Source: Candidatus Moraniibacteriota bacterium
Lineage (GTDB): Bacteria; Patescibacteriota; Minisyncoccia; Moranbacterales; GCA-2747515
DNA: 64,000 nucleotides
Direction: 5' to 3'
Assembly: GCA_038208115.1 (NCBI GenBank)
Contig: JBBQZC010000005.1
Coordinates: 667 to 64,666 of the forward strand
Part shown: positions 18,822-50,567 of the stretch, one piece after another
How the letters are laid out: the number at the start of each line of letters is the position of its first letter
Position numbering within the stretch: the stretch's first letter is position 1
Made by a program: the position numbers and the translations under genes
The notes under the pieces: model-generated
The model's input: the letters and a program-made list of their open reading frames with translations, nothing else
Told to the model about the DNA's origin: nothing
Database searches by the model: none

Positions 18822-19910
18822 CTACACACTAATTACCTCAGACTCACTTTGCATTTTAGTAATACGAATAATCTTGAATTCTCGCAAAAACATAAAAAGA
18901 ATTCGCGCAAAGAATCCAGAACTTATCCTTACAATCGGTGCAATGGATAAAAGTACAATGAAAAATGTTGAGCCAAAAATTTCAATTTGATAATCCCTCA
19001 ACATAGTATTACCCGTAATAATACGATTGACTTGTATGTCTATAAGATCACTCACTACCTGTGAAATAAGTTCGTTTCCCTGCAATGTACTACCGAGTAT
19101 TTCTGACATATTACTTCGCATTTGGATAATTGCTTGATCCTCAGCACTTTTTTTTATTTGTTCCAACGTTGCTCCTGTAATCTGTCCAGCCCATCGCACA
19201 AGCATGCCATCATCTCCCTCAACACGCTGACTATCTGCTGATGAATTGTTTTGAGATGTGTTAATGACAAAATGTAAAAATTCATCTACGGTCATTGTGC
19301 GTACTGACATATCCCCTACCATACTTTTTTGCAATAAATATTCTGCAGCTTTGTTCGATATATTTACTTGATTACTAATGTCAAATATGAAGTTCTCATT
19401 GTTTTTAATATAAAAATAATATTGACTAGAAATCACAATTACCAAAGACAGACTTACAGGGATAATTCCGCTCCGAATGATAGTTGGCATATCGATTTTG
19501 ATCAAGTTAAAGAGTGTGTGTCGCATCATATGAAATCCATATAACGCAATGCCCATCATAATTACTACTACAATAATATGTTGTAATACAGGCATAAAAA
19601 TAATACTTGGCAAAAAAGAAATCAACACAATTGGTGCAATCAATTTTTTGATACCTACAGTAACTGAAAAAACAATAAAAAAAGCTATAAAAACAGACGC
19701 TGCAATCATTGGAGCAATCCATGTGCTATGCGCAATACCCGTAATTGACCGCATAACAAGAAGAAAAAATACAGCCCCGCAACCAGTTACTATCACAGAC
19801 ATTATCATATCAAACGTACGAATTTTTTTGTGATTGTTTTTTTCACCCATATCTATATACATATATTTTATTTTATTAAATATATTATAGCATAAAATCT
19901 TTTTTTCCAT
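18822..19910 (-). CDS. Hypothetical polytopic membrane protein
   Basis: Long ORF with five or more predicted TM helices and a central soluble region. No recognisable family. True start may lie downstream of the listed Met. Confidence 0.45.
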   Translation of the reverse strand: MEKKILCYNIFNKIKYMYIDMGEKNNHKKIRTFDMIMSVIVTGCGAVFFLLVMRSITGIAHSTWIAPMIAASVFIAFFIVFSVTVGIKKLIAPIVLISFLPSIIFMPVLQHIIVVVIMMGIALYGFHMMRHTLFNLIKIDMPTIIRSGIIPVSLSLVIVISSQYYFYIKNNENFIFDISNQVNISNKAAEYLLQKSMVGDMSVRTMTVDEFLHFVINTSQNNSSADSQRVEGDDGMLVRWAGQITGATLEQIKKSAEDQAIIQMRSNMSEILGSTLQGNELISQVVSDLIDIQVNRIITGNTMLRDYQIEIFGSTFFIVLLSIAPIVRISSGFFARILFMFLREFKIIRITKMQSESEVISV

Positions 19911-21105: not shown

Positions 21106-23022
21106 TTATTTCTTTTCCCCCTCTTTTGTTGCATCTTCAACTTCTGCTTCTTTGGCACCACCTTCTTCTTTTGATGCTTCTGTTGCAGATTTTTCTTTTG
21201 CTGCGGCCTCTTGTGCTATTTTATATAGTTTTTCACCAATCTTTTGTGCTACCGTTGAAAGATCTTCTGTTGCAGTTTTAATTTTTGCACCATCTGCTTT
21301 TTCATCTTTCAAAACTTCTTTGAGTGCATCAACTTTTTCTTGTACTGGTTTCTTCTCATCCTCAGTAAGTTTATCACCAGCATCTTTCATCGCCTTTTCG
21401 GTTGTAAATACGAGTGTGTCTGCTGCATTGCGAATCTCAATAAGTTCTTTTTTCTTCTTATCTTCTTCCGCGTGTATCTCTGCATCTTTGGTCATACGCT
21501 CAATCTCTTCTTTAGAGAGACCTGATGAACCCTCAATCTTGATTGATTGTTCTTTACCAGAAGCCTTGTCGACCGCTTTGACACTGAGAATACCGTTTGC
21601 ATCAATGTCAAATGCCACCTCTACTTGTGGAACACCACGTGGCGCTGGCGGAATACCGTCAAGAATAAATCGTCCCAATGTTTTATTATCAGATGCCATT
21701 TCACGTTCTCCTTGGAGTACATGGATTTCTACGCTTGGTTGATTATCCATTGCCGTCGAAAAAACCTGAGACTTACTCGCTGGAATTGTAGTATTTTTGT
21801 CGATCAGTGGTGTACGCACACCGCCCATTGTTTCAATGCCAAGCGTGAGTGGAGTCACATCGAGGAGAAGTACATCTTTGACATCCCCCTGAAATACACC
21901 TCCTTGTATTGCTGCACCCATAGCGACAACTTCATCTGGATTGACAGTCATGTTTGGTTTCTTACCAAAAAATTCTTCTACTGTTTTCTGGATAATCGGC
22001 ATACGTGTCATGCCACCTACCAAAATCACTTCATCAATATCACTCTTTGTAAATCCTGCATCTTTTAATGCCTTTGCTGTTGGAATCAACGTTTTTTGGA
22101 CGAGATCATGGACGAGCTCTTCAAGCTTTGCACGAGTCAACGTCATCACAAGATGTTTTGGACCCTCATTACTTGTTGTAATAAATGGCTGATTGATTTC
22201 TGTTTGCTCTGCAGTTGAAAGTTCAATCTTTGCTTTTTCCGCCGCTTCTTTGACGCGTTGCAATGCAAGATTGTCATTCGCCAATTCTATGCCTTCTGCT
22301 TTTTTGAACTCCGTCAAGATCCACTTAATCACGATTTGATCAAAGTCATCCCCACCAAGATGTGTATCCCCATTTGTTGCTTTTACTTCAATCGTATCGT
22401 TACTTACTTCAAGAATCGACACATCAAATGTGCCACCTCCGAGATCATACACTGCAATCTGCTCATCATTTTTCTTATTGAAACCATACGCAAGCGCAGC
22501 TGCTGTTGGTTCATTAATCACACGACGCACTTTGAGCCCTGCAATTTCACCTGCTTCCTTAGTTGCTTTACGTTGTGCATCATCAAAGTATGCTGGTACG
22601 GTAATCACCGCCTCTTCAATCTTTTCGCCGAGCTTTGCCTCTGCATCAGCCTTGAGCTTTCCAAGTACCATCGCGCTGATTTCTTGTGTTGTATAATCTT
22701 TATCGCCCATCTTTACCTTGATACTGCCATTATCAGCTTTCACAAGAGTATATGGAGACAATTTCATATCTGCTTGTACTTCAGCATCATCAAAATGACG
22801 TCCTATGAAACGCTTGATACTATAAAGCGTATTTATCGGATTTGTAACTGCTTGACGCTTCGCCAACAAGCCTACGAGTCGCTCGCTATTTTTATTCACA
22901 GCAATCATCGATGGAGTCGTGCGATTTCCTTCCTTGTTTTCGATAATCTCTGGTTTACCACCTTCAATGATTGCCATTGCTGAGTTGGTAGTACCAAGAT
23001 CAATACCCAATATTTTTCCCAT
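21106..23022 (-). CDS. dnaK: Chaperone DnaK (Hsp70)
   Basis: [19 protein letters not shown]..., [12 protein letters not shown], 638 aa full length. Confidence 0.97.
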
Positions 23023-23132: not shown

Positions 23133-23552
23133 CTATTTACCTTTGATGCTTACAGAGATCTTCTTTGGCTTTGATTCTTCTGCCTTTGGCAAAACCACTC
23201 GCAAAACACCTTTTTCATATTCAGCATTCGCTTCAGATCCTTTTACTGCTACAGGTAATATTACCGAGCGAGAAAATGACCCATGACGAATTTCTTTACG
23301 ATAATAGTCCTCCTTCTTTATCTCTTTTTTTTCTGTCACTTCACCAGAAATCGTCAACACATCATTCTCAACTGCGATATTGATTTTTTCAGGATCTATT
23401 CCGGGTAATGATGTTTCGATGATAAGATCATCATTGTCCTGATAAACATCAATTGCTGGTGCAAAATTTTGATTTGCAAACGGGAAGAAATTTTCACCAA
23501 AAAAACGATCAATATCCGTAGCTGGCGTAAAACGCATAATTTCTCGTGTCAT
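23133..23552 (-). CDS. Small heat-shock protein (Hsp20/alpha-crystallin family)
   Basis: AIDVYQDNDDLIIETSLPGIDPEKINIAVENDVLTISGE...GVLRVVLPK. Confidence 0.85.
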   Translation of the reverse strand: MTREIMRFTPATDIDRFFGENFFPFANQNFAPAIDVYQDNDDLIIETSLPGIDPEKINIAVENDVLTISGEVTEKKEIKKEDYYRKEIRHGSFSRSVILPVAVKGSEANAEYEKGVLRVVLPKAEESKPKKISVSIKGK

Positions 23553-23588: not shown

Positions 23589-24476
23589 CTACCCCAACAC
23601 CACGCGTGCTGGTCGCAATATTTTTGCTCCAATCTTATATCCGGGTTGCGCAATTTTTTCAATTTTTAAATCCTCTTTCAATTTTTCATCACCATCTTTT
23701 TTAATTGCCTCCATCGTATGTGGATTAAATTCATCTCCAATATTGATTTCGATTTTCACCACACCATGCTCTTCAAGCACTTTTTCCATTTGTTGTTGTA
23801 TATACATAATACCCGTCACCCATGGATTATCTTTCGCATCTTCTGGTATATGATCAGTCGCTGCATGAAAATTATCCAATACTGGCAGTATATCGCTGAT
23901 AACACCTCCTGCTGCGTACGCGACAAATTCCTTCTGATTTTCACTTTGTCGTTTTTTATAATTGTCAAAGTCAGCCAATGTGCGCTTCCAACCATCATAT
24001 GCCCCTATAAGTTCAAGCTGCCCTTCTGCTTTTCGAATTGCATCTTTGACCCACTGATCAATCTTTTTATTTTTCAAAATATCTTCAGCAGACACCCACT
24101 TACATTCACTATGTTCATTACTTAAAACAATTTCTCCACTCTCATACATCACTAAATATGACATAATCACACCATATAATTCATCATGATATGGAACACA
24201 CACCCCACTCAAAGGACCAATCACACGATAAGTAACATCCCCCAACTCTTCTGCAACCTCTCGCGCAAATGACTCTTCTAGATTTTCATCAGCATCTACA
24301 CGACCTCCGGCAAATTGCCATGCACCTTTCTCAATTTTTAATGTATTTTCTTTTACGAGAAGATACTTTTTTTGGTGAGGATCATACAAAACTGCTCGCT
24401 GAGAATAATACATCTGTGCATTCTTTTTTATATCTTTCATGATTTTTTTATTTAATGAATTTATATAATAATACAT
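23589..24476 (-). CDS. grpE: NUDIX hydrolase-GrpE fusion protein (N-terminal Nudix domain, C-terminal GrpE nucleotide-exchange-factor domain)
   Basis: Nudix box GGRVDADENLEESFAREVAEELGD in the N-terminal ~145 aa. C-terminal ~150 aa DFDNYKKRQSENQKE...ILPVLDNFHAA...GYKIGAKILRPARVVLG is GrpE-like. Single uninterrupted ORF. True start is probably an internal Met (MKDIKK or MYYSQ), since the listed start overlaps hrcA. Confidence 0.7.
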   Translation of the reverse strand: MYYYINSLNKKIMKDIKKNAQMYYSQRAVLYDPHQKKYLLVKENTLKIEKGAWQFAGGRVDADENLEESFAREVAEELGDVTYRVIGPLSGVCVPYHDELYGVIMSYLVMYESGEIVLSNEHSECKWVSAEDILKNKKIDQWVKDAIRKAEGQLELIGAYDGWKRTLADFDNYKKRQSENQKEFVAYAAGGVISDILPVLDNFHAATDHIPEDAKDNPWVTGIMYIQQQMEKVLEEHGVVKIEINIGDEFNPHTMEAIKKDGDEKLKEDLKIEKIAQPGYKIGAKILRPARVVLG

Positions 24477-25195
24477 ATAACCACACTCATGCCACCAAGA
24501 AATTTTTTGACATAATTTATAAGTGACTTATTACGCTCATATGCCATATTCTTCGGACCGATCAGAGCTACAATCCCCTTCTCCCCATCTTTTTCATATT
24601 GACTGACGACCATAGAATAATTTGTTGCTTTTCCAATTGGATTATCTGCCCCAATAAAAATCTTAGTCTCACCATCTGCTAACTCCAACATCAATCCTTC
24701 ACATCGTTCATCAATATAATCCAAGCTCTCTGCCAATTGACATAATTCATCCAAATCTTCTGCTTCCACATCACGCAAAAGTGAACGTAGACCAAATTCA
24801 GAAAAATCATTTTTTTGTGGAAGGCCACTCACTGCTACATAACCACTGAGAGTAGATAATAACTTTGCAGTTGTACGTGTGAGCCGTGTGTTTTGCGCCT
24901 TGAGTTGCAATAATTCTTTTTGTAATGTTTGTTGTTCTTTTTTTGAAAGTTCTCGATCTGGCATGATTTCCTCTACAAAATGACGATATCCCGCATCTGT
25001 CGGGATGCGCCCTGCACTTGTATGTGGCTGATACAGATATCCTGAATCCTCAAGATGTCCCATATCATTACGCAGCGTTGCTGGTGATACCTGAAAACCA
25101 TATTTATCCACCAATATCGAAGATCCTACAGGAAGACCTGTTTTTGTGTATTCTTCGATCACTGCAACTAAAATTTTTGACTGTCGTTCATTCAT
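24461..25195 (-). CDS. hrcA: Heat-inducible transcription repressor HrcA (short form)
   Basis: MNERQSKILVAVIEEYTKTGLPVGSSILVDKYGFQVSPATLRNDM; CIRCE immediately upstream. Confidence 0.85.
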   Translation of the reverse strand: MNERQSKILVAVIEEYTKTGLPVGSSILVDKYGFQVSPATLRNDMGHLEDSGYLYQPHTSAGRIPTDAGYRHFVEEIMPDRELSKKEQQTLQKELLQLKAQNTRLTRTTAKLLSTLSGYVAVSGLPQKNDFSEFGLRSLLRDVEAEDLDELCQLAESLDYIDERCEGLMLELADGETKIFIGADNPIGKATNYSMVVSQYEKDGEKGIVALIGPKNMAYERNKSLINYVKKFLGGMSVVICIII

Positions 25196-25214
25196 GTTCT
25201 TATTATAAATATGA

Positions 25215-25241
25215 TTAGCACTCTTGTCAAGAGAGTGCTAA
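25215..25241. promoter_or_regulatory. CIRCE operator (TTAGCACTC-N9-GAGTGCTAA), HrcA binding site
   Basis: Perfect match to the CIRCE consensus, read directly at 25215-25241, 20 nt upstream of the hrcA start. Confidence 0.9.
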
Positions 25242-47390: not shown

Positions 47391-50300
47391 TTAGTCCTTT
47401 ATCACAGCGTTCCAATCGTTACTGCCAGTACATACATATAAATATGCCTTTGTACTATTGCCCCCGACTGTTTCTGTGCCGCCATTTGTTTTGATAAATA
47501 ATTCACCTGTAGAACATCCTCCAGGGAGTGACGAACCGCTTGCGATACGTAATTTACCCGACGTAGTATCTACCGTGCCGTCTACATCAACATCCTCTAC
47601 ATTTTCGATATTCTTACCATTCATATCGATACCACCATCTGCCGTCAGTTTACCTTCGAGATTTAAACCACCCGATGCTGTAAAACCTGTGCCTGTATTA
47701 CCAATGTTTGTGATCAGATTATTATGCATGTTAATTGCGCTACGAAAATCTGAGTTACCAGTAATATCCACGCCACCAGCGATAACAGTGAGTTTATCGC
47801 CTATCGTTACCGTTCCGCCAAACGCACCGTTGCGATCAACATCCAAATCGGCATGTCCGCCACCTGAGTTTGTTACAGTTAATATCGTATGTGATCCATC
47901 ACTTAAATCTATTGAACGTGAATTATCAAAAGTAATATTTCCGTTCATTTCGATTGCAGTGAAGTCTGCATTACCATTTGCCTTTATGCCCCAATTTCCA
48001 CTATCAATTCCTACAGATGCTGAAGGATTACCGATCACAATCTTAGCAGCATCTGCTCCTGCAGTGCCGAGATTGATTATCGAAGGTGTGCCACTTGTAT
48101 TATCAGAATTCGTAAGTCCAGACAAAAAGTTGATTGCATCTGCATAAATCGTTGACCAACGACTCCCTGCCGTGCCAAGTGAACCACCAGTTATACTGCC
48201 TTCTACATGGAGATTTGCTTTGCCACCTCCTGTATTTTGGATGAATACATCAGAATCCGAACCATTATTACCAACTGAGAGCGCCATCGAATCATCTGAT
48301 GAAATAATGTCACCATTTTCTACTGTCGTGACACCATCAGTCAAAGAATTTGCACTCACATCACCAGTTGTCACAATGTCAGTTGAGCCATTGAGATCCT
48401 GTCCGATAATAGTTCCGTCTTGGATTTCATCAGTTGTTACTGCATCACTTGCAATTTTTTCATTTGTAACGCTTCCATCAGCCAATTTTACAGTTGTTAC
48501 AGCATTATCAGCGATTTTTGCAGTTGTTACTGCACCATCTGCGAGATGCGCAGGAGTGATTGCACTATCAGCAATCTTACCGCCTGTAATTGTTGCATCG
48601 GCGATTTTTGCAGTAATCACACTACCATCGGCAAGTTTTGCAGAAGTCACTACACTATCCACGATTTTAGCGGTTGTTACACTGTCGTCAGCGAGTTTAA
48701 TATCTGTAACTGCGCCATCGGCGATCTTTGCTGTTGTAATACTACCATCTACAAGATTAACTGTGACTACGGCACCATCGGCAATCTTGCCATTGACGAT
48801 TGCACCATCAATGAGCTTTATTGATGTGACGCTATTATCTGCAAGTTTTGCTGTTGTAATAATACCATCTGCAAGATCTGCAGCTTGCACTGTTCCATCA
48901 ATGATCTTTGCAGTTGTAACACTATCATCAGCCAATTTCAATGTTGTGATAGAGCCATCAGCAATTTTTGAACCAACAATTGCTGCATCCAAAATTTTAC
49001 CTGTTGTCACACTATCATCAGCAAGATGTGCTGTCGTCACTGCGAGAAATTCGATCTTTGAACTTGAAACGCTCCCATCAGCAAGTTTAATATTTGTCAC
49101 TGCATTATCTGCAATTTTTGTTGTTATGACACTCCCATCAGCAAGTTGAGTCATTGCAATCGCACCATCAGCGATTTTGCCTCCAGTGATTGTACCATCT
49201 TGGATCTTTGATGTGATGATACTGCCATCAGCAAGTTTCGTGGAAATAATTGCACCATCTGCAATTTGCAATGAACCCACACCGCTATCAGCAATACCAA
49301 TTGTATCAACTCCCACTTCGATACCTGTACCTGCGCCGACATTTAATGTCACTGTGCCAATATTACCTCCCCCAGTCATACCGTCTCCAGCAACAACATC
49401 AGTAATAGACGTAATGAGCGAAGAAATCGTCCATGTACCATCCATATTATTTGTAACAGAAGTATTTGGTCCTGCCACTATCGATTTAACCATACTTCCA
49501 TCAGAAGCAAGTTTATCACCAGTCAATGTACCGTCTGCAACTTGTGCGCCAGTGATCGTTCCTATGACCTTAGACGCACCAATACCAGTAATCCACGTCG
49601 GATCACTATATGTGCCTGTTGTGTACACACCATTTGTAACAGTATCTGCATTTCCAAAAAGATTTCCTGTCACATCACCAATAACATTACCCATAAGATC
49701 ACCGACAAAAGCTAACGCTGTGATACTTCCTGTAGTCGTCGCGTTGCCGCCGGCGATTGTCATTGTTCCATCAGTAAAAGACAACGCATTGATTGCGCCT
49801 GTTGTATTGATTGTGATATCTGCTGCAATCTTATTACCCGTAATTTCTTGATCACCAATCTTTGCATTTGTGATTGCACCATCAGCAATTTTTGCCGTAA
49901 CTACACTACCATCTGCCAGAGAAATTGTTGTAACCGCACCGTTTGCAAGCTTACCACTTGTAACTGCACCATCTTCGATCTTTGCAGTAGCAACGGCACC
50001 ATCAGATATCTTAATACCAGTTACTGCATTATCAGCGATCTTTGCTGTTGTAATTGCATCATTTTCGATTTTACTTGTTGCTACACTACCATCAGCTAGT
50101 TTTGTGCCAACGACAGCGCCATTTTCGATCTTTGCAGTTGTAACGCTTCCATTTGCCAATGTGACAGACAATATTGCACCATCAGCAATTTTACCTGATG
50201 TGATCGTACCATCCACTAATTTTGCACCAACAACCGTTCCATCCGCCAATTTCATTCCAACAATTGCACCATCACGCAAATCAGATGATTTGATTTTACC

Positions 50301-50567
50301 TTTCAAGTTCAGTTTTTTATATGCGATATTTGCGTTATTTGACACATCCTTATTCGTGATGCGTCGTGATATCACTTCGATATAATTTGCACCTTGTTGA
50401 AAATATCCTATAACCTTTTCTTGACGTGTTTTAGCCTCTACTGAAGCAAAAACTGACCCAAAAACAACCAAGGCACAAAAAAAAGCTCCTGTGACTCTGG
50501 TCATTTTGGAGTAACCCCGTTTTTGAGAAATTGAAGATTTATTACTTCTTTTTTCCGTAACGCTCAT
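47391..50567 (-). CDS. Giant secreted repeat protein: signal peptide, ~60 tandem degenerate 10-aa repeats (consensus K-I/L-A-D-G-A/S-V-T-T/S-A), and a distinct C-terminal ~150-aa domain
   Basis: 1058 aa. MTRVTGAFFCALVVFGSVFASVEA signal peptide (probable true start at MTRV, around nt 50504). Long runs of KLADGSVTTAKIADGAVT... . Antisense frames are also open, as expected for a repeat gene. Confidence 0.75.
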   Translation of the reverse strand: MSVTEKRSNKSSISQKRGYSKMTRVTGAFFCALVVFGSVFASVEAKTRQEKVIGYFQQGANYIEVISRRITNKDVSNNANIAYKKLNLKGKIKSSDLRDGAIVGMKLADGTVVGAKLVDGTITSGKIADGAILSVTLANGSVTTAKIENGAVVGTKLADGSVATSKIENDAITTAKIADNAVTGIKISDGAVATAKIEDGAVTSGKLANGAVTTISLADGSVVTAKIADGAITNAKIGDQEITGNKIAADITINTTGAINALSFTDGTMTIAGGNATTTGSITALAFVGDLMGNVIGDVTGNLFGNADTVTNGVYTTGTYSDPTWITGIGASKVIGTITGAQVADGTLTGDKLASDGSMVKSIVAGPNTSVTNNMDGTWTISSLITSITDVVAGDGMTGGGNIGTVTLNVGAGTGIEVGVDTIGIADSGVGSLQIADGAIISTKLADGSIITSKIQDGTITGGKIADGAIAMTQLADGSVITTKIADNAVTNIKLADGSVSSSKIEFLAVTTAHLADDSVTTGKILDAAIVGSKIADGSITTLKLADDSVTTAKIIDGTVQAADLADGIITTAKLADNSVTSIKLIDGAIVNGKIADGAVVTVNLVDGSITTAKIADGAVTDIKLADDSVTTAKIVDSVVTSAKLADGSVITAKIADATITGGKIADSAITPAHLADGAVTTAKIADNAVTTVKLADGSVTNEKIASDAVTTDEIQDGTIIGQDLNGSTDIVTTGDVSANSLTDGVTTVENGDIISSDDSMALSVGNNGSDSDVFIQNTGGGKANLHVEGSITGGSLGTAGSRWSTIYADAINFLSGLTNSDNTSGTPSIINLGTAGADAAKIVIGNPSASVGIDSGNWGIKANGNADFTAIEMNGNITFDNSRSIDLSDGSHTILTVTNSGGGHADLDVDRNGAFGGTVTIGDKLTVIAGGVDITGNSDFRSAINMHNNLITNIGNTGTGFTASGGLNLEGKLTADGGIDMNGKNIENVEDVDVDGTVDTTSGKLRIASGSSLPGGCSTGELFIKTNGGTETVGGNSTKAYLYVCTGSNDWNAVIKD

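Follow-up and report, generated by a model that had tools for sequence, protein, structure and literature searches.

A heat-shock operon with a nudix-grpE gene

The 64-kb window, by which we mean the whole stretch of Candidatus Moraniibacteriota DNA analysed here, contains a chaperone operon whose genes run hrcA, nudix-grpE, hsp20, dnaK, all on the minus strand. The gene of interest, a nudix-grpE fusion (23589..24440, minus strand), encodes a protein of 283 aa from its probable start. It is preceded by hrcA (24461..25195, minus strand; Pfam HrcA PF01628, 58.1 bits against a cutoff of 22.2), which encodes a short HrcA of 244 aa; related loci likewise have a gene for a short HrcA (~245-255 aa) ahead of the fusion. 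Between grpE and dnaK lies hsp20 (23133..23552, minus strand; Pfam HSP20, 67.9 bits), which is present at the same position in related loci L081 and L087 and absent from it in L084 and L085. The last gene, dnaK (21106..23022, minus strand; Pfam HSP70, 842 bits, full length), encodes the Hsp70 partner of GrpE. The window holds one GrpE and one Nudix domain of the fusion family, and Rfam returned no match in it.

A putative HrcA binding site, the CIRCE operator TTAGCACTC-N9-GAGTGCTAA (25215..25241, minus strand), was present with zero mismatches, compared to 0.01 matches expected in shuffled sequence. It overlaps a predicted sigma-70-type promoter, TTGACA-17-TATAAT (25202..25230, minus strand; 12/12 consensus match), with the -35 hexamer inside the CIRCE spacer and the end of the -10 hexamer 6 nt ahead of the hrcA ATG, a geometry that suggests a leaderless hrcA transcript. 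An earlier note on this DNA had described a CIRCE-controlled hrcA-grpE-hsp20-dnaK operon, and the Pfam calls, the gene order and the perfect CIRCE all agree with that description, repression itself being predicted from sequence. HrcA-CIRCE operons of Bacillus and other bacteria have the order hrcA-grpE-dnaK-dnaJ and, like the fusion operon, a CIRCE overlapping a sigma-70-type promoter upstream of hrcA-grpE-dnaK. Unlike the Bacillus type, the operon described here combines the short HrcA and the suggested leaderless transcript with hsp20 inserted between grpE and dnaK, and has no dnaJ among the flanking ORFs scanned; next after dnaK comes an ORF for a Gmad2-domain protein.

Nudix and GrpE domains in one reading frame

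The maximal ORF (23589..24476, minus strand) comprises 295 aa with no stops and no frameshifts. A database entry 100% identical to the fusion protein (P0001) begins at the second Met, giving the 283-aa form, and we prefer this start at 24440 because the entry and the N-terminal length in homologues agree on it. Both Pfam domains were matched in the one frame: NUDIX (PF00293, 58.3 bits against a cutoff of 21.1, E=1e-15) at ORF residues 28-145, covering profile positions 8-129 of 134, and GrpE (PF01025, 122.2 bits against a cutoff of 25.8, E=2e-35) at ORF residues 144-293, covering profile positions 17-162 of 165. From the end of the Nudix domain to the beta domain of GrpE there is no internal Met that might serve as the start of a separate GrpE. 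The single-gene fusion proposed in the earlier note is upheld by this unbroken ORF.

The Pfam GrpE match (23598..24047, minus strand) takes in the stalk, the four-helix-bundle helices and the C-terminal beta domain. In sequence searches of the PDB, this half matched GrpE of G. kaustophilus (4ani, residues 80-209) and E. coli (1dkg, residues 58-191) as well as human GrpEL1 and the proteins of T. thermophilus (3a6m) and M. tuberculosis (8gb3). Residues presumed to be functional in E. coli GrpE were largely preserved in the fusion family. G122, which we take to be the site of the grpE280 mutation, corresponds to an invariant G210 and R186 to an invariant R276, P151 corresponds to P240 (90%), and L96/P97 and D100 have invariant equivalents; F86 becomes Tyr or Phe, R183 is replaced by Lys, and the basic patch R73-R75 corresponds to K162/K163/R164, patch residues kept in at least 95% of members. 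The GrpE C-terminal domain recognised in the earlier note was matched at nearly full length with its hallmark residues kept. The equivalog cutoffs of the NCBIfam GrpE models were not reached (best NF010738, 83 bits against 137), and the 23 GrpE models found in the 25 listed matches (of 44) all scored below their own cutoffs; these are narrow lineage models, so the shortfall reflects divergence and does not bear on family membership.

The Nudix domain (24057..24413, minus strand; residues 10-128 of 283), assigned by Pfam, AlphaFold and Foldseek to an alpha/beta/alpha fold of a subtype that we call type A, contains the Nudix box GRVDADENLEESFAREVAEELGD (24237..24305, minus strand), here a putative catalytic Mg2+-binding motif. 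The box fits the consensus GX5EX7REUXEEXGU at 22 of its 23 positions, the final hydrophobic position being Asp, in accordance with the near-perfect box noted earlier. Across 110 homologues the active-site residues were strongly conserved (G45/G46 100%, E52 89%, R60/E61/E64/E65 96-97%, G67 94%), as was a downstream glutamate, E109 (96%). At least 95% of family members retained the REx2EE core, and about half of the relatives had a one-residue insertion in the box (Gx5Ex8RE). Most 10-residue blocks of the modelled domain had pLDDT >90, with dips to 72 and 85, and Foldseek recovered the Nudix fold at E=1e-10 with target-normalised TM scores of 0.75-0.80 overall (0.80 for 3grn, 0.76-0.80 for 3ees and 0.80 for 3i7u). 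The Nudix domain looks catalytically competent.

The structures nearest to the Nudix domain were NTPases, BdRppH and Ap4A/Ap6A hydrolases, a group of mixed specificities at 22-26% identity. These are generic small MutT-like NTP/NpnN pyrophosphohydrolases and at that identity none favours one substrate. The set compared comprised an M. mazei MutT-related protein (3GRN), BdRppH (3EES), E. coli NudJ/YmfB (4NFX), A. aeolicus Ap4A hydrolase (3I7U), T. thermophilus Ndx1 (1VC8), NudG and NudI. They share with the fusion a single-domain fold of ~130 aa (Foldseek target-normalised TM 0.75-0.81), a complete Nudix box and the conserved downstream Glu, and differ from it in that their C-terminal helix ends the protein, whereas in the fusion it runs on into GrpE; the fusion family conserves no substrate motif specific to any one subfamily. 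Pro15/Tyr16 after the Nudix box resemble what we take to be classical markers of ADP-ribose and ApnA substrates, and were rejected as such because these positions vary in the family consensus.

The Nudix domain takes the place of the GrpE tail

The AlphaFold model of the fusion protein (pLDDT 89.9) places helices at residues 129-196 and 206-224 and beta strands at 227-282, the predicted GrpE half showing the long stalk helix, the bundle of helices and the C-terminal beta-sheet domain expected of GrpE. The first helix (23853..24056, minus strand; AlphaFold DSSP, block pLDDT 84-97) is a single continuous element of 68 residues that runs from the last Nudix helix through the GrpE stalk into the first helix of the four-helix bundle. 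The connector, measured from the Nudix Trp to ADFDNYKK, was 40/41 or 44/45 residues long across the family, two length classes that differ by one helical turn. In the model, the Nudix domain is apparently joined rigidly to the GrpE stalk.

This predicted helix does not bear out the earlier note's suggestion that the greater part of GrpE's long paired N-terminal helix has given way to the Nudix domain. It aligned with E. coli GrpE from about residue 38 (MAFFT), a confident sequence match beginning only at residue 58. As modelled, the missing element is the disordered N-terminal tail of ~35-40 residues plus, of the free stalk, no more than its first quarter, the latter on account of this stretch now packing on the Nudix fold. 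Only ~9 low-confidence residues precede the Nudix fold in the model, and a conserved hydrophobic tail motif was absent from the family consensus.

GrpE proteins of bacteria, mitochondria and chloroplasts are described as following a single conserved plan of disordered tail, stalk, bundle and beta wing (PMC12987570). The canonical tail binds the DnaK substrate-binding domain (SBD) and promotes substrate release (PMC12915176, PMC10803776). In E. coli, the tail attaches to the substrate site of DnaK by an IIM motif (PMC12915176). The stalk is a known thermosensor whose neighbouring N-terminal region acts on the DnaK SBD (PMC12915176). Canonical GrpE (1DKG, 4ANI, 8GB3) and the fusion have in common the stalk helix, the four-helix-bundle helices, the C-terminal beta domain, the hallmark residues, a basic patch (RRR in canonical GrpE, KKR in the fusion) and a gene placed between hrcA and dnaK. 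Whereas canonical GrpE has a disordered, charged N-terminal tail, the fusion has a folded Nudix domain of ~120 residues on a continuous helix and a somewhat shorter free stalk.

Distribution, variants and losses of the fusion

The fusion architecture is shared by >110 protein clusters with identities as low as 35%, and by all of the best-scoring 120 of 262 matching clusters. These came mostly from Parcubacteria-type Patescibacteria in NCBI, JGI, ENA and Logan assemblies and carry only the source name 'GrpE'; the fusion was also found in eight GTDB species genomes, and two nearest relatives were colinear with the fusion locus at the DNA level. Confirmed in this way, the Nudix-GrpE fusion is real and lineage-wide in a clade of Patescibacteria. 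The architecture had been called non-standard for GrpE, which holds for GrpE in general and fails within this large clade, where the fusion is the norm. In the window, as well as in L004, L081, L083, L084, L085 and L087, the fused gene is located between hrcA and dnaK, and this position is shared by the type A, type B, tandem and degenerate forms described below.

Two Nudix subtypes, A and B, which are only distantly related, occupy the same position on GrpE, and some proteins have a tandem form with two Nudix domains, one of each subtype. In a degenerate clade (P0063/75/76/79), REx2EE has been lost and the N-domain (50-77% identity among members) kept, with its fold predicted to be intact by AlphaFold from an alignment dominated by intact members. 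The unfused GrpEs of L008, L009/L011 and L010/L013 have fused proteins as their nearest relatives (up to 72% identity), which implies at least three losses of the Nudix domain. In evolution, GrpE function can thus dispense with the domain. In an alignment of DnaK, no column separated 12 fused from 4 unfused lineages.

An origin from adjacent genes was considered and rejected, as no such Nudix gene lay within 4 kb of grpE in ~70 unfused loci, which also indicates no wider genomic association outside the fusion clade. In an exhaustive search of 1.8 billion representatives with the Nudix domain, the nearest matches were GrpE-fused and, known or possible cut copies aside, verified standalone orthologues numbered zero. 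Candidate 'standalone' orthologues of 150-220 aa in this set were discarded as mostly C-terminally cut fragments of fusions (ends ...NGWKRCV, ...ADFENYKKR), and three (P0122, P0124, P0139) that end just past the Nudix helix are ambiguous between fragment and standalone protein. A word-index search that took only the Nudix domain as query against a 5.8-billion protein set gave 29 candidates, none of them scored, and was uninformative.

Possible roles of the Nudix domain

We lean modestly towards the view that this gene encodes the operon's own and probably sole GrpE of a Parcubacteria-type Patescibacterium, as judged over the 64 kb plus 1-8 kb of flanks, with the tail replaced by a MutT-like Nudix domain acting both as a hydrolase and as a folded cap. 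The C-terminal part would act as a standard GrpE dimer, opening the nucleotide cleft of DnaK, and this dimer would therefore present a pair of Nudix domains at the distal stalk end, where canonical GrpE tails act on the DnaK substrate-binding domain. The Nudix domain would hydrolyse a nucleotide-derived compound, perhaps an NTP derivative or a dinucleoside polyphosphate, while subject, like the chaperone, to heat-shock control by HrcA. As a cap, it may stand in for the tail and fix the geometry of the stalk end, a role that would persist in the small clade without catalytic residues. Both halves are under purifying selection, with dN/dS of ~0.1 or below (0.107 for the Nudix half against P0002, the closest relative, and 0.067 for the GrpE half). 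Counting against this view are the repeated evolutionary losses of the domain, the lack of a DnaK column that sets fused lineages apart, and the mixed specificities of the nearest Nudix structures.

The possibility that a sequencing or assembly error joined nudix to grpE, or that the GrpE half has decayed, is now exceedingly small. The same continuous architecture recurs in the >110 clusters from NCBI, JGI, ENA and Logan and in the eight GTDB species genomes, and these independent assemblies answer the worry about sequencing error; the DNA-level colinearity of the two nearest relatives, at dN/dS ~0.07-0.1, the retained invariant GrpE residues and the lack of an internal Met for a separate GrpE start also speak against it, and this reading is effectively refuted. 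Another explanation is that a housekeeping MutT/RppH-like sanitising enzyme was joined to GrpE in a streamlined genome, each activity remaining independent and co-expression under HrcA control being the benefit. The repeated loss of the domain with GrpE otherwise unchanged, the lack of DnaK co-variation, the ordinary house-cleaning Nudix enzymes among the closest solved structures and the absence of Nudix genes adjoining grpE in the ~70 unfused loci are all in keeping with such a fusion. A flexible, variable linker would be expected from it, however, and the junction is instead a predicted continuous helix of fixed length; in addition, two distantly related subtypes and their tandem share one site, the domain has outlived its catalytic residues in one clade, and, known or possible cut copies aside, the search of 1.8 billion representatives gave GrpE-fused forms as nearest matches and not one verified standalone orthologue. 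We consider this explanation improbable.

Also unlikely, in our estimation, is a regulatory sensor, an idea that goes back to the earlier note's nucleotide- or alarmone-sensitive control of the DnaK cycle. Here the Nudix domain would mainly bind a stress nucleotide, such as Ap4A or another NpnN, ADP-ribose or an oxidised NTP, with slow turnover, and its occupancy would make the GrpE stalk more or less stable, or change its geometry, through the rigid helix, tuning nucleotide exchange or substrate release by DnaK. Helical connectors of quantised length, retention of the domain in a clade without catalytic residues, the use of one GrpE site by two distantly related subtypes, and a stalk that is itself a thermosensor beside a region acting on the DnaK SBD (PMC12915176) would all suit a sensor. 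Conversely, ~96% conservation of the catalytic residues favours turnover over mere binding, at least three losses occurred without visible compensating change in DnaK, and sequence and fold neighbours at 22-26% identity point to no one ligand. That binding or hydrolysis of a stress nucleotide, for example Ap4A, at the stalk tip gates GrpE, with the signal sent through the rigid helix, is a speculation that we rate as quite unlikely. Older E. coli literature links Ap4A to heat shock and to DnaK binding.

A GrpE variant concealed by its name

The Nudix-GrpE fusion was not described in the full-text literature searched, including a 2025 review of GrpE (PMC12987570), and the one paper containing both GrpE and Nudix (PMC7159879) treats them separately. 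It is apparently an undescribed, lineage-wide variant of GrpE. A precedent for a bacterial GrpE with an extra functional domain is Anabaena All4144, which is reported to have an added helix-turn-helix domain (bioRxiv 10.1101/2025.04.14.648684); there the extra domain is DNA-binding and not an enzyme, and the lineage is a different one. The public name 'nucleotide exchange factor GrpE' conceals both the Nudix fusion and its variants.

In this clade of Patescibacteria, the GrpE tail, now being established as a driver of substrate release from DnaK, has been swapped for an enzyme domain mounted, rigidly by prediction, on the thermosensor stalk. Even if there is no coupling between the two halves, the family provides natural tail-less GrpEs with matched tailed sisters that would be useful for the tail model, a heat-shock-controlled Nudix enzyme in organisms with minimal nucleotide metabolism, and a clean system of domain gain, duplication, catalytic death and loss. 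If the halves communicate, nature would here provide a case of a bacterial Hsp70 cycle controlled by a nucleotide or other small molecule. Should nucleotide gating prove true, the presence of two distant Nudix subtypes at one site would reflect selection for coupling, and a small-molecule signal, not temperature alone, would set the Hsp70 cycle in these energy-poor bacteria with reduced genomes.

Nudix and GrpE domains share a single open reading frame

A single, uninterrupted ORF of 295 aa on the minus strand (23589..24476) carries both a NUDIX domain (Pfam, residues 28-145; 58.3 bits, cutoff 21.1, E=1e-15) and a GrpE domain (residues 144-293; 122.2 bits, cutoff 25.8, E=2e-35), the latter spanning model positions 17-162 of 165. 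Its Nudix box, GRVDADENLEESFAREVAEELGD (24237..24305, minus strand, translated from the window), departs from GX5EX7REUXEEXGU at the last position alone. Because the identical database protein, P0001 (283 aa), begins at the second Met, and this start gives the N-terminal length of the aligned homologues, the gene is most likely 23589..24440, with its start codon 20 nt past the hrcA stop codon; from here on, residues are numbered on the 283-aa protein.

On the same strand, a short hrcA (24461..25195, 244 aa) lies upstream of the fusion, and hsp20 (23133..23552) and dnaK (21106..23022) lie downstream. The sigma-70-type promoter upstream of hrcA, TTGACA-17-TATAAT, matches consensus at 12/12 positions, and its -35 hexamer sits within the spacer of a CIRCE element without mismatches, TTAGCACTC-N9-GAGTGCTAA (25215..25241, minus strand; 0.01 expected by chance), where bound HrcA would directly occlude the -35. 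We infer from this arrangement that hrcA, nudix-grpE, hsp20 and dnaK are co-transcribed and repressed by HrcA. The earlier note's account of a near-perfect Nudix box and a GrpE in one ORF of a CIRCE-controlled hrcA-grpE-hsp20-dnaK operon is thus borne out by the domain profiles and at sequence level.

Six nucleotides separate the -10 hexamer from the hrcA ATG (TATAAT-AAGAAC-ATG), and from the promoter geometry at 25195-25241 the hrcA transcript probably has little or no leader. HrcA is about 340 aa in model bacteria; it is short (244-255 aa) in the window and at the related loci L081, L083-L085 and L087, with Pfam matching the C-terminal domain alone (profile 90-213) plus a weak HTH. hsp20 lies between grpE and dnaK in the window, L081 and L087, and is absent from the type B and degenerate-clade loci (see below) L084 and L085. 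Other sampled ORFs in the window are housekeeping genes (AddA/UvrD-type helicase-nuclease, RecG, P-type ATPase, YceG, CysRS, CorA, peptidase U32). Two minus-strand ORFs, 47391-50567 (1058 aa) and 18822-19910 (362 aa), had no Pfam match at E <= 1e-5, and Rfam detected no family at gathering score over the whole 64 kb, including tRNA, rRNA and riboswitches.

The fusion recurs across assemblies and both halves are conserved

A search of 5.8 billion proteins gave 262 matches. The best 120 of these all cover >80% of the query at identities down to 35%, almost all carry both Pfam domains, and they derive from NCBI, JGI, ENA and Logan assemblies. Matches, if named at all, are merely 'nucleotide exchange factor GrpE', and named ones are assigned to the Parcubacteria group, Patescibacteria group, Pacebacteria or Moranbacteria/Moraniibacteriota. 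Eight further fused genes (L001-L007, L012) came from scanning GTDB species genomes. At the DNA level the window fusion is colinear with its two nearest relatives (87% and 72% identical), and comparison with the closest one gives dN/dS of 0.107 (Nudix part) and 0.067 (GrpE part) at dS about 0.65-1.0, showing strong purifying selection on both. The independent assemblies, colinearity and low dN/dS exclude, for practical purposes, an assembly or frameshift artefact, including the sequencing error between two genes that the earlier note had considered. The fusion-bearing contigs L001, L002 and L004 belong to MAGs labelled Micavibrio, Bdellovibrionales and Candidatus Fimivivens; since all have the same Patescibacteria-type order of short hrcA, fusion and dnaK, either the labels or the binning of the contigs is probably at fault.

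We aligned 110 fused proteins and scored per-column frequencies. G45 and G46 are invariant, E52 is kept in 89%, R60, E61, E64 and E65 in 96-97% each and G67 in 94%; beyond the box, E109 (96%), H110 (90%) and W115 (100%) are also conserved, together the full set expected, from sequence, for metal binding and catalysis. In roughly half of the relatives the box is longer by one inserted residue (Gx5Ex8RE), and a strict regular expression therefore missed them. The GrpE half matches five solved GrpE structures by sequence. Aligned with MAFFT to the E. coli grpE gene product, it retains invariant or near-invariant equivalents of G122, P151, R186, L96/P97 and D100, with F86 as Tyr/Phe, R183 as Lys and R73-R75 as KKR, all positions which we take to have functional roles; the loss of conserved GrpE residues, which the earlier note had named as grounds for refutation, was accordingly not found.

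The Nudix domain replaces the GrpE tail

An AlphaFold2 model built with the family alignment (pLDDT 89.9) predicts that residues 10-123 fold as a Nudix sandwich and that one helix spans 129-196, ahead of the second bundle helix and the beta domain. In the model, that helix joins the closing helix of the Nudix fold to the GrpE stalk without a break. MAFFT places the start of the helix near residue 38 of E. coli GrpE, and the HMMER match to 1DKG begins at E. coli residue 58. The earlier note's proposal that the Nudix domain replaces most of the long paired helix is therefore not upheld: by model and alignments, the part replaced is the disordered N-terminal tail, with no more than the first quarter of the free stalk now packed against the Nudix fold. 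This matters because that tail has recently been given a function, transiently filling the DnaK SBD's substrate groove and promoting substrate release (PMC12915176, PMC10803776).

The invariant Nudix Trp lies 40/41 residues from the GrpE motif ADFDNYKK in 76 sequences and 44/45 residues from it in 36, a difference of one helical turn; such a two-valued length is what a rigid helical connector, unlike a flexible tether, would predict. The classes correspond to Nudix type A ('...KxWIKDAV'), which includes the window fusion, and type B ('...EAIKKLxxxGFExEKxxT'). Seven proteins of 445-457 aa (P0045, P0050, P0059, P0062, P0064, P0073, P0074; also L083 6001-7344) carry A, B and GrpE in tandem with both boxes intact. 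In L083 a small opposite-strand ORF separates the tandem gene from hrcA, and IS1-type transposase genes lie just past dnaK. Types A and B resemble each other no more than either resembles the best standalone Nudix proteins (1.8-billion-protein library; median profile scores ~73-80 bits in every cross-comparison, 154-182 bits within a type), compatible with either two independent recruitments or an old duplication.

By sequence and by fold, the Nudix domain is closest to small MutT-like enzymes with differing specificities (M. mazei MutT-related protein, BdRppH, NudJ/YmfB, NudG, NudI, Ap4A/Ap6A hydrolases), which share 22-26% identity with it, and no specificity motif is conserved across the fused family. 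An exhaustive Nudix-only search of the same library gave 55 representatives at E <= 1e-10, the best 'short' matches being mostly C-terminally cut copies of the fusion, so that, within the resolution available, type A appears to be known only attached to GrpE.

Loss of catalytic residues and of the domain

The REx2EE residues are lost in a four-member clade (P0063, P0075, P0076, P0079) whose Pfam NUDIX scores fall below threshold. Members still share 50-77% identity in the N-terminal domain, which is predicted with an unchanged Nudix fold, in a model whose alignment is dominated by intact members; its retention despite decay points to a role beyond catalysis. Decayed boxes, also seen at L085 1520-2398, read for example INKIKKDIG and EKKLVKDIG.

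For each of five unfused GrpEs (184-220 aa, Lys/Glu-rich tails) the nearest or second-nearest GrpE-domain relative is a fused protein: L008 is 72% identical to fused P0066, L009 and L011 are closest to fused L006 and P0108 (all with a Cys-rich insert), L013 is closest to fused L002, and L010 groups first with L013. In 100 column resamplings support was >=84 for three of the five, 81 for L013 and 21 for L010, the last because its nearest sequence is itself unfused. This nesting (L008; L009/L011; L010/L013) indicates that the Nudix domain was lost three times or more. Within 4 kb of these five, or of ~70 other unfused grpE loci, there was no Nudix gene of the fusion family.

The Cys-rich insert, with CxxC-like spacing in the GrpE beta-domain loop (L006, L007, L009, L011, P0108; for example NECDECKDKEKYKNK and HECVDCKVDHKYKNK), occurs in some fused and unfused Parcubacteria/Moranbacteria-type GrpEs and may respond to metal or redox state; redox regulation is reported for mitochondrial GRPEL2 (PMC6089081).

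Discussion

The Nudix-GrpE architecture is already in public databases, unremarked. The full-text literature searched, which leaves most subscription journals outside its coverage, held no description of it, and a 2025 review, which gives the conserved GrpE plan as disordered N-terminus, stalk, short helical domain and beta wing, mentions neither Nudix nor any other fusion (PMC12987570). The only other extra-domain GrpE met there was an Anabaena GrpE with an HTH domain, reported in a preprint (bioRxiv 10.1101/2025.04.14.648684).

That the gene is an artefact or its GrpE dead is hardly credible, given the NCBI, JGI, ENA and Logan assemblies, colinear nearest relatives, purifying selection on both halves and retained equivalents of conserved E. 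coli residues. The earlier note had proposed that ligand occupancy of the Nudix domain would adjust the DnaK cycle, which we regard as unlikely; the unfused relatives, together with a DnaK alignment in which no column separates fused from unfused lineages, argue against obligatory Nudix-GrpE coupling. A fusion of convenience, its two activities mechanistically independent, seems similarly doubtful.

We lean, with modest confidence, towards a bifunctional protein, with or without cross-talk between its halves. Only one GrpE copy is present in the 64 kb window and in each related locus examined. The C-terminal part would be an ordinary GrpE exchange factor encoded at the canonical operon position, its tail swapped for a rigidly mounted, putatively catalytic Nudix domain that would be expressed under HrcA control and may double as a structural cap at the end of the stalk.
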